From sequence record PP738785.1: DNA of 64,000 nt; one strand, given 5' to 3'. The notes below the pieces were generated by a model, which saw only the letters and a list, made by a program, of their open reading frames with translations, was not told the origin of the DNA and made no database searches. The position numbers and the translations under genes were made by a program. Shown here one piece after another: positions 26,684 to 27,037 of the stretch (positions are counted from its first letter, which is position 1; each line of letters begins with the position of its first letter). Origin of the DNA: Klebsiella phage vB_KpnP_Tribble_ER49.

Positions 26684-27037
26684 TTTCGAGTATGCCTTGT
26701 TTTGTCGCTATCTACACATCCCTCGAATGTGCGCTGGTCGAGTCTTCAGACTCACTAGCAGGATCGCCGTTACGGGCGTTTGAACGAGTAACGAGACTGT
26801 CTCTGATACAAGGCGGTACAGAAACAGTAGCGACAAGATAAACCACATGAATTGCTTCATAGTTCCTCCTGCCTAGGTGATTAACACTATGTGAATCACA
26901 CTGGTTTGTAAAGATACAAAGCACTGTAATCCAATGAAAATGTGGGGAGACTAGCTCCCCTGCCAAAGGCATAGATAAGAATTAAGTGATGGTAATGAGT
27001 CGAGCGACTCACAGAAGTGACCGGAGGTCACAAAGGC
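26684..27037 (-). ncRNA. Palindrome-dense structured non-coding region (candidate ncRNA, long structured 3' UTR, or origin/regulatory element)
   Basis: At least seven perfect hairpins and a long-range 9-bp inverted repeat (26702-26710 / 26828-26836). No SD-preceded ORF. GC content above neighbouring DNA. Confidence 0.4.

Follow-up and report, generated by a model that had tools for sequence, protein, structure and literature searches.

The present analysis concerns a stretch of 64,000 nucleotides (nt) from Klebsiella phage vB_KpnP_Tribble_ER49 (sequence record PP738785.1), hereafter the window, and within it the hairpin-rich element at positions 26,684 to 27,037, which a preliminary description had presented as non-coding DNA between the operon of the RNAPII region and a terminator. 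The 1-kb stretch around the element is 93-97% identical to phages of the genus Efbeekayvirus (P184, HS106, FBKp27 and others), and sequence identity places the window in a Klebsiella N4-like phage of that genus, family Schitoviridae. The gene strand around the element is the minus strand, which carries the genes for the RNAPII large subunit (28276-29550) and for a 94-amino-acid (aa) protein without annotated function (27038-27322), and the element is therefore read here as the reverse complement, downstream of the 94-aa gene. In that direction, the computed anatomy consists of a predicted hairpin promoter of the N4 virion RNA polymerase (vRNAP) type (P_c), a leader closed by an intrinsic terminator (T1), a small open reading frame (ORF) that overlaps a five-way-junction RNA fold, and a second terminator (T2). 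We lean, with modest confidence, towards considering the region an autonomous accessory early transcription unit of the minus strand, equipped with a promoter, a leader, a gated mRNA for a small peptide, and T2.

All the hairpins listed in the preliminary description are found in the sequence at the places given for them, apart from small details: the hairpin GTGACC-GGA-GGTCAC starts at 27017 and not at 27018, and the hairpin formed by GGGGAG and CTCCCC has a loop of 5 nt, which differs from the one described. The 9-base-pair (bp) inverted repeat TTGTCGCTA / TAGCGACAA is located at 26702-26710 and 26828-26836, as had been reported. The hairpin density is unusual, being in the top 2-3% of the window: five perfect hairpins with stems of at least 6 bp occur in 354 nt against a mean of 1.24 (standard deviation 1.2), a count reached by 1.7% of the 354-nt segments of the 64 kb, while nine with stems of at least 5 bp occur against 3.8 expected, a count reached by 2.8% of the segments. 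The GC content is indeed raised as had been noted, but marginally (46.0% vs 44.4% for the window). The minus-strand RNA expected between the predicted start and the terminator (361 nt) has a folding energy of -125.2 kcal/mol (z = -6.08, 0/100 shuffles as good), and its antisense strand one of -114.7 kcal/mol (z = -4.62). The comparisons reported below include divergent N4-like lineages obtained from metagenomes and run assemblies (L015, L140, L145, L149, L198, and L199), and the lineages compared are few and partly related.

A putative small gene and the RNA fold predicted within it

The region had been described as holding no credible ORF; nevertheless, a minus-strand ORF of 50 codons is present at 26708-26860 (MKQFMWFILSLLFLYRLVSETV...KTRPAHIRGMCR; product MKQFMWFILSLLFLYRLVSETVSLLVQTPVTAILLVSLKTRPAHIRGMCR), with its ATG at 26860 and an AGGAGG Shine-Dalgarno sequence (26865-26870) 4 nt before the ATG. 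The sequence GGAG precedes an in-frame ATG in all lineages, with AAGGAG at this position in the siphovirus-like phages discussed below, and no other frame among the six offers, as that of the small ORF does, 44 or more stop-free codons in every one of the 21 distinct variants. Among eight close relatives, the central variable stretch of the ORF is either 29 or 32 nt long, a difference of 3 nt that remains in frame. In the variant L144 the third codon is a stop, and translation may therefore really begin at the second ATG (26846-26848).

Searching 1.84 billion representative proteins with a profile of the peptide returned 13 hits only, mostly peptides of 46-59 aa. Members of the family share an N-terminus of the form FILSLLFLYRxVSETV, a central proline within an otherwise hypervariable middle, and the C-terminal motif RL(T)H..GMC(R/S) with a near-invariant cysteine. 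These 46-59-aa peptides reach a Kyte-Doolittle maximum of 2.6-2.8 over 11 residues at the N-terminus, where a hydrophobic run of about 12-15 residues is interrupted by arginine, and carry a net charge of +2 to +8. Neither the peptide (nothing at E<0.1) nor the neighbouring 94-aa protein matched a family in Pfam, PHROGs, NCBIfam, or PADLOC.

The locus is unannotated in most GenBank records, and in close relatives the small ORF is mostly either unannotated or overlapped by an 86-aa ORF (26712-26972, minus strand), called by PHANOTATE and annotated in both BM327 records (L002 and L005, 1813-2076). This longer frame was rejected on account of its missing Shine-Dalgarno sequence, the absence of its ATG in L015, L140, and L149, and its interruption at codon 19-24 in divergent lineages; moreover, no antisense ORF is open in all lineages. 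The public annotations of GADU21, BM327, and BU9 at this locus appear to be wrong, since a 77-aa coding sequence is annotated across a deletion junction and the promoter region in GADU21 (L004, 1587-1820), the non-conserved 86-aa frame in BM327, and ORFs of the opposite strand over the small gene in BU9 (L013, 2916-3158).

Upstream of the Shine-Dalgarno sequence, the 5' untranslated region (UTR) forms a long imperfect hairpin (H0, 26892-26933), for which RNAalifold predicts 17 pairs, three of them with compensatory changes, and whose motif occurs once in the window. A sigma-70 promoter was considered in the invariant TTTACA...TAGTGT of this segment and discarded: the promoter scan was silent, the spacing is not kept in L198 and L199, and the covariation of H0 explains the segment better.

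Within the ORF, RNAalifold predicts a five-way-junction RNA domain from 21 distinct sequences (26702-26836, minus strand). The long-range 9-bp repeat, previously noted as enclosing a domain, is the closing helix of this junction: the segment 26828-26836 (codons 9-11) is joined to 26702-26710, where the stop codon lies, and four stem-loops are enclosed. Standard pairs are formed in 97.9% of the alignment cells, compared with 91.4% after shuffling the pairing partners and 29-51% after sliding them by 1-3 columns, and 16 of the 44 pairs show compensatory changes, compared with 6.0±1.6 in the shuffles (0/500 reach 16) and 2-7 in the slid controls; the shuffles leave the phylogenetic signal in, and the slid controls remove it. 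Some of these changes alter the peptide. The replacement of an A-U by a G-C pair in the closing helix of L140 and L145 turns the stop codon TAG into CAG and makes the ORF six codons longer, and in L149 the flipping of three consecutive pairs in a 12-bp hairpin replaces L by Y, S by C, and E by I. The co-evolution of the five-way-junction fold with the coding sequence is well supported by the covariation of the modelled helices. Besides, many conserved G-U pairs can form on the minus-strand RNA only, making the structure specific to that RNA, which speaks against a cruciform in the DNA and against an array of operators.

With a covariance model of the domain, a single copy is detected in the window (26694-26845, 181 bits), and scores of 109-120 bits are reached by L198, L199, and L200, three lineages outside its training set that had come to light independently through the protein profile. 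Nothing was found by this model in the first 14 kb of N4, in agreement with the earlier remark that no equivalent is described in that phage, nor in loci retrieved by chance pattern matches. The Rfam search that the preliminary description had recommended gave no family match at the element: in Rfam 15, with E up to 10 over 26000-27600, the best hit was SNORA47 with 21 bits against a gathering score of 45, while at the gathering score six homologous loci returned tRNA only (tRNA-Ser in two siphovirus loci), and ARAGORN detected nothing at the element. The earlier proposal of a stable structured RNA is therefore upheld by conservation and covariation, but its purely non-coding nature is not, given the conserved translatable small ORF inside.

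The 5' arm of the closing helix has a second potential partner. In all nine lineages tested, the sequence GACAGGAG (GACAAGGAG in the siphovirus-like phages), which starts just upstream of the Shine-Dalgarno sequence and overlaps it, is complementary to AUCUUGUCG, which consists of the same nucleotides as this arm. The resulting local hairpin, predicted in nine lineages at -12 to -16 kcal/mol, encloses the start codon. The pairing with the Shine-Dalgarno sequence and the closing helix are mutually exclusive, and either can win in folds of single sequences; because of this exclusivity, a translational gate is proposed.

Predicted promoter, leader, and terminators

The hairpin that opens the unit, P_c (27017-27031, minus strand; GTGACC-TCC-GGTCAC on the coding strand, with GGA as the template loop), has a 6-bp stem and a 3-nt loop and falls within the 5-7 bp / 3-nt layout of N4-type vRNAP promoters. 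In N4, these promoters have stems of 5-7 bp, a 3-nt loop made of template -10G, -11G, and -12A, and a start at a fixed distance downstream (PMC4496689); a TCC loop is present in each of the four predicted promoters of KP8, P1-P4 (PMC6950046), and the start of the mapped early promoters of LUZ7 is a G located 13-14 nt from the hairpin centre (PMC9163698). Scanning the window for hairpins with 3-nt loops revealed three with a TCC loop and the motif TGYGA 11-15 nt past the loop centre (G at offset 12), all on the minus strand: P_a (centre 34200), which sits between a terminator and a Shine-Dalgarno sequence with its ATG; the sister hairpin P_b (27359-27375, centre 27367; GATGCCC-TCC-GGGCATC), predicted to be the promoter of the 94-aa gene, whose ATG follows after 33 nt; and P_c. 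Applied to N4, the same scan recovers P1 (GTTGC-TTC-GCAAC), P2 (AGAAGC-TCC-GCTTCT TTTGG), and P3 (AGCTGC-TCC-GCAGCT TTTGG). P_a cannot depend on RNAPII because it lies upstream of the RNAPII genes, and since the motif is shared, P_c should use the same polymerase as P_a.

Four hairpins of the window combine a TCC loop with a stem of at least 6 bp, against 0.53 in shuffles. In a set of 11 hairpins from the window and divergent relatives, 65 of 66 stem cells are Watson-Crick pairs, compared with 40.9±2.8 when the partners are shuffled (0/2000), several pair types being found at each loop-proximal stem position; five different stems occur at P_c itself (GTGACC/GGTCAC, GTGCAC/GTGCAC, GGTGTCG/CGACACC, CGCAC/GTGCG, and CTGGCC/GGCCAG). 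All 11 hairpins have a purine at offset 14 from the loop centre, and seven have a G at offset 12. In the window, G residues stand 12 and 14 nt past the loop centre of P_c, from which the transcription start is predicted at 27010-27012. The hairpin is best read, on the basis of these patterns, as a DNA hairpin promoter rather than as a part of the RNA, and its promoter activity is accordingly a prediction.

The likeness to the promoters of N4 (P1-P3), KP8, and LUZ7 extends to the inverted repeat of 5-7 bp, the 3-nt loop reading TCC on the coding strand, which puts a purine in the middle of the template loop, the spacer rich in pyrimidines, a purine as the start, 11-14 nt away from the loop centre, and the intergenic position on the template strand of early genes. 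N4-type promoters conserve a GC-rich heptamer, GC-GGA-GC, whose template bases -8G and -9C are contacted. In N4 and KP8 this heptamer (GC-TCC-GC) is invariant and the outer pairs vary, whereas in the hairpins described here it is the outer GTG...CAC that mostly stays constant and the three pairs nearest the loop that vary; the loop is closed by C-G in 10 of the 11 (by G-C in L140), and the next pair varies. The start motif is TGYGAR here, in contrast to the TTTTGG of N4-type promoters. Because these phages carry a different vRNAP, a different promoter specificity is possible. Also unlike N4, two of the three predicted promoters lie downstream of the RNAPII genes, at about 11 kb from the left end. 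The proposed consensus for the Efbeekayvirus group is (G/A)TG-NNN-TCC-N'N'N'-CA(C/T) followed by YYYTGYGAR, with two putative promoters placed beyond the RNAPII genes.

Other hairpins of the window deserve mention beside these. GTGCCC-GCT-GGGCAC (20696-20710, minus strand) has the start-like motif TGTGAT behind it, spaced as in P_a, P_b, and P_c; this hairpin is located inside a 393-aa ORF of the middle region and may be an internal promoter or a chance match. A second family of early-region hairpins, (C)ATTGYCC-ACA-GGRCAAT(G), with stems of 7-8 bp on the minus strand, occurs at 31555-31573, 33185-33203, and 35374-35390. An ATG directly follows the hairpins at 33185-33203 and 31555-31573, the former being placed between a GGGAGG Shine-Dalgarno-like motif and the ATG, and the family could represent translational control or another class of promoter.

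Downstream of P_c, the predicted transcript opens with a 5'-terminal stem-loop (26997-27010, minus strand; GAGUCG-CU-CGACUC), which is replaced at the same position by GUGAUGC/GCAUUAC, with one G-U pair, in L149 and by GACGC/GCGUC in L198 and L199. An A/U-rich single-stranded linker of about 35 nt separates it from T1 and includes the motif CUUAAU (26981-26986); motifs of the YUUAAU or CUUA type were recognized, by eye only, in the divergent linkers of the window, L015, L140, L149, L198, and L199. T1 (26933-26960), an intrinsic terminator or attenuator that splits the element in two, consists of GGGGAG-CUAGU-CUCCCC followed by ACAUUUUCAUU and was flagged by the terminator scan in the window (six pairs, then ACATTTTCAT), in L140, and in L149. 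Its stem has five different sequences across the lineages, with U tracts of 6-7 residues in L140, L198, and L199, and the tracts of L140, L149, L198, and L199 are stronger than that of the window. The unit ends at T2 (26652-26682), a strong intrinsic terminator with eight pairs followed by TTTTTCAT that is kept in all N4-like lineages; the terminator noted previously beside the element corresponds to it and is placed by the scan at 26661-26682 on the minus strand. Both T1 and T2 show the GC-rich hairpin and the U tract on the transcribed strand that define intrinsic terminators.

The RNA from the P_c start to T1 is predicted to be about 80 nt long, and the 83-nt fold is modestly better than shuffles (z = -2.47). 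The 5' stem-loop, AU-rich single strand, and Rho-independent terminator of this leader resemble those of the putative sRNA1-3 of LUZ7 and of Hfq-type small RNAs (sRNAs), with the differences that the LUZ7 candidates are late transcripts from another region and that the leader has no sequence or Rfam relationship with such sRNAs. The duplex energies of the leader with the downstream translation-initiation region were no better than those of shuffles, and a role of the leader as antitoxin for the ORF was rejected on these energies.

Beyond T2, the 160 nt that precede the next gene (26490-26651, minus strand) are 97% conserved. They include, at 26603-26624, the 9-bp palindrome AGTAGTACT-TCTT-AGTACTACT followed by CTTTCAACCTGTATTATAAA on the minus strand, whose 4-nt loop is inverted in FBKp27 (AAGA), as expected from a flip of a hairpin or cruciform. 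Another hairpin, at about 32421 on the minus strand, is followed by AACCTGTATTA just upstream of a gene, and the two sites are candidates for middle (RNAPII) promoters of the hairpin-bearing sort reported for LUZ7. A middle-promoter motif in common with the downstream CTTTCAACCTGTATT was discarded after only weak recurrences. The motif AAACTATAGGC, called T7-like in the preliminary description, was likewise not retained, as it has two exact copies (26536-26546, minus strand, and 45694-45704, plus strand, each about 45-55 nt upstream of a gene start) and its count at two mismatches is not above chance.

Conservation and mobility of the unit

The promoter and leader segments are more conserved than the genes next to them. 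Across six relatives, the identity is 99.3% for the P_b intergenic region, for P_c, and for the leader, and 98.6% for the 5' UTR including H0 (26861-26943), compared with 83.5% for the 94-aa gene, 90.4% for a 139-aa gene, and 83.5-95% for adjacent genes overall. When present, the unit is thus, judging from these alignments, under strong constraint at the nucleotide level. The 94-aa protein itself has 45% amino-acid identity in FBKp27 and 45-99% among relatives, and this divergent gene between the near-invariant P_b and P_c looks like a case of cassette exchange between conserved promoters.

The unit can also be lost. GADU21 and cp20 carry a clean deletion of 296 nt that begins directly behind T1 and stops short of the next promoter region, so that both keep P_c, the 5' stem-loop, and T1 and are without the ORF and T2, while K17alpha62 is without the 94-aa gene and has P_b and P_c about 45 nt apart. 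Additionally, searches with tblastn and in protein databases detected the same ORF, which occurs there with the same RNA fold, in unrelated siphovirus-like Klebsiella phages of about 60 kb (VLCpiS10a, KP13-27, and BU9) and in metagenome contigs. In these phages the element is flanked by major-head and head-closure genes and preceded by a TTGACT-17-TATTGT promoter, with AAGGAG as its Shine-Dalgarno sequence, in a variable region beside a tRNA-Ser gene. Because the locus is, on the evidence of these sequences, an insertion-deletion hot spot, the unit appears to behave as a dispensable mobile cassette (moron).

Pattern scans with free third codon positions yielded 26 distinct nucleotide versions of the ORF, and a pattern scan of 185,579 bacterial and archaeal species genomes found zero copies. 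Two further patterns were discarded: GGGGAGCNAGTCTCCCC was too short, with 120 chance hits in viral contigs, and CTGTTTNNNTACCGCCNTGTA gave 43 hits in bacterial genomes and five previously unseen viral loci, which are regarded as chance matches because the covariance model gives none of them more than 17 bits.

Like the morons of lambda and HK97, the unit brings a promoter and a terminator of its own, is found in some close relatives and missing from others, and occurs at different genomic positions in unrelated phages. Unlike them, its promoter is exchanged according to the host phage (a vRNAP hairpin vs a sigma-70-like promoter) and its payload is a structured RNA with a peptide, not an ordinary protein gene.

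Rearrangements were also observed in the siphovirus-like setting, where in one contig (L016 5001-5162, compared with L017 5001-5700) the ORF is fused by a deletion of about 400 nt to a segment beginning with GGTAAGGAGGTGATCC. The junction lies at the conserved GGCGATCC / GGTGATCC, and the downstream segment holds UAAGGAGGUGAUCC, a perfect complement of the 3' end of 16S rRNA. Elsewhere in the window, six tRNA genes (Gln, Ser, Tyr, Pro, Asp, and Asn) are clustered at 41752-42442 on the minus strand, and comparison with the coordinates of the P184 record suggests that the window spans the genome ends near 38.3 kb.

Proposed mechanism and rival explanations

For the transcription unit proposed here, what we infer beyond the anatomy is that the promoter is active, that termination at T1 is partial, that the switch operates, and how the peptide functions. 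The hairpin at 27017-27031 would be extruded as a DNA hairpin, the GGA loop of the template strand would be read by vRNAP, and transcription would start at about 27010-27012. The transcript would open with the stem-loop, which may be protective, and the AU-rich linker before meeting T1, where some molecules would end as the leader RNA of about 80 nt and the remainder would read through into an RNA carrying the long hairpin, the Shine-Dalgarno sequence, and an ORF of 46-56 codons before ending at T2. As long as AUCUUGUCGCUA (codons 8-11) pairs locally with the Shine-Dalgarno region, the ribosome-binding site and the start codon would be hidden; its pairing with the stop-codon region would close the junction and free the ribosome-binding site. 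Such a switch would restrict translation to complete and correctly folded mRNA, as in type I toxin mRNAs, and the peptide, with its hydrophobic N-terminus and basic C-terminus, may be a membrane-active accessory (moron) product made immediately after infection.

Type I toxin mRNAs are those of the hok/sok family, aapA1/IsoA1, tisB, zorO, and dinQ, and the comparison draws on what is established about these systems and on Fozo et al. from 2010 (PMC2887945). The unit resembles them in its peptide of less than 60 aa, which may be hydrophobic and membrane-directed, in a long and highly structured mRNA whose coding region shows covariation, in a ribosome-binding site open to sequestration by an alternative pairing, and in a long-range helix with the 3' end of the message. 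It differs in that the antisense or divergent antitoxin RNA of type I systems was not found here, the peptide resembles none of the toxin models of NCBIfam or Pfam in sequence, the long-range helix would free the Shine-Dalgarno sequence rather than hide it, and the element resides in virulent phages, whereas type I toxins are found on plasmids and chromosomes. Of the features that define type I toxin-antitoxin systems, the structured mRNA with a sequestrable ribosome-binding site is seen and the antitoxin RNA is not, so that the unit may work like a type I toxin mRNA but falls outside the class.

Several observations weigh against this interpretation. P_c lies some 11 kb, or 15% of the genome, from what is presumed to be the left end, compared with the leftmost 10% for the N4 promoters, and no TCC hairpin serving the first ~4 kb of the early region was found. 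The U tract of T1 is strong in several lineages, so that read-through from P_c may be little and would leave the source of ORF transcription in doubt. The duplex between the Shine-Dalgarno sequence and the arm only moderately beats shuffles in each lineage (0.006-0.15 as good), and the Shine-Dalgarno sequence, being purine-rich, readily forms pairs with an arm rich in U and C. The search for an antisense or complementary antitoxin RNA gave none, and a scan for antisense sigma-70-like promoters or terminators within the element was empty, antisense promoters of the phage polymerase being outside its reach. The hydrophobic stretch of the peptide is short, at about 12-15 residues, and broken by arginine. 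Because several of the amino-acid changes follow RNA compensations, the constraint on the peptide sequence is weak, and the main product may be the RNA. Finally, the literature searched contains no expression data for these phages.

One rival explanation is that the product is the structured RNA, a five-way-junction non-coding RNA of about 135 nt or a dual-function RNA, with the ORF secondary, for example as a translated leader in which passing ribosomes would modulate the RNA, or as a tolerated frame. We regard this as unlikely. It would account for the strong covariation, for the compensations that override coding (loss of the stop in L140/L145 and the three substitutions in L149), for a peptide middle that is hypervariable except for the central proline, and for the siphovirus-like copies in a variable region by a tRNA-Ser gene; however, it leaves unexplained why this frame alone among the six is open in all 21 variants, why the length of the central stretch differs by 3 nt in frame, why GGAG and ATG are kept in two unrelated upstream contexts, and why the peptide has a conserved C-terminal motif with a near-invariant cysteine, and an Rfam match is absent. 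A tentative possibility, compatible with the peptide-encoding unit and somewhat easier to credit, is that the leader from P_c to T1 is an independent sRNA of about 80 nt that the injected polymerase would make in the opening minutes of infection and that would act in trans through the CUUAAU linker on host or phage mRNAs. Its classic architecture (5' stem-loop, AU-rich single strand, terminator hairpin with U tail), its 99.3% identity in six relatives, the linker motif in six lineages, and its intact state in GADU21 and cp20 despite the lost ORF all speak for such an sRNA. Yet no target or chaperone is known for it, its pairing with the translation-initiation region is not above chance, the z-score of its fold is only -2.47, the linker motif was judged by eye, and T1 may persist in GADU21 and cp20 merely as the remaining terminator of the operon. 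The broader proposition that the injected vRNAP makes, besides the transcripts of protein genes, early regulatory RNA (the ~80-nt leader sRNA and/or a five-way-junction RNA acting as RNA, with a dual function of RNA and peptide), within a mobile module passed between Schitoviridae and unrelated siphovirus-like phages and given the promoter that suits the transcription system of each, appears to us rather doubtful.

The preliminary description had also offered a replication origin, a packaging signal, or a binding array for a regulator as candidate roles, and a DNA-level element of this kind, including a palindromic operator array, is highly improbable. Dense palindromes, highly conserved nucleotides, and the GAGTC/GACTC common to two stems would fit it, but the helices change in sequence and stay complementary, unlike a sequence-specific binding site, the conserved G-U pairs belong to the minus-strand RNA only, and the sense strand folds better by about 10 kcal/mol; moreover, the element is deleted in viable relatives, occurs between head genes of an unrelated siphovirus-like phage, and shows no GC-skew inflection. 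Equally hard to sustain is a functionless 3' UTR or spacer that closes the early operon and is rich in hairpins, the ORF and the hairpins having arisen by chance. The missing annotation in most GenBank records and the dispensability of the cassette agree with it. The preliminary description had expected such a spacer to lack conservation and covariation in relatives, but both are seen: conservation exceeds that of the flanking genes, covariation goes far beyond the controls, the element moved as a unit between unrelated phages, and its architecture is kept in six divergent N4-like lineages, whose divergence excludes a set of recent recombinants sharing one identical segment.

The unit adds an unannotated putative small gene and an RNA family that standard gene callers have missed or called in the wrong frame or on the wrong strand. 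Work to develop N4-like phages against Klebsiella is under way, with early regions labelled hypothetical for the most part and hairpin promoters rarely annotated. The natural deletion variants GADU21 and cp20 are ready-made controls, and the unit would offer a compact model of an mRNA in which anti-Shine-Dalgarno pairing is set against a closing helix, a design that is directly testable. If the peptide is membrane-active or the leader regulatory, the cassette would represent an early function of host takeover or exclusion common to unrelated Klebsiella phages.

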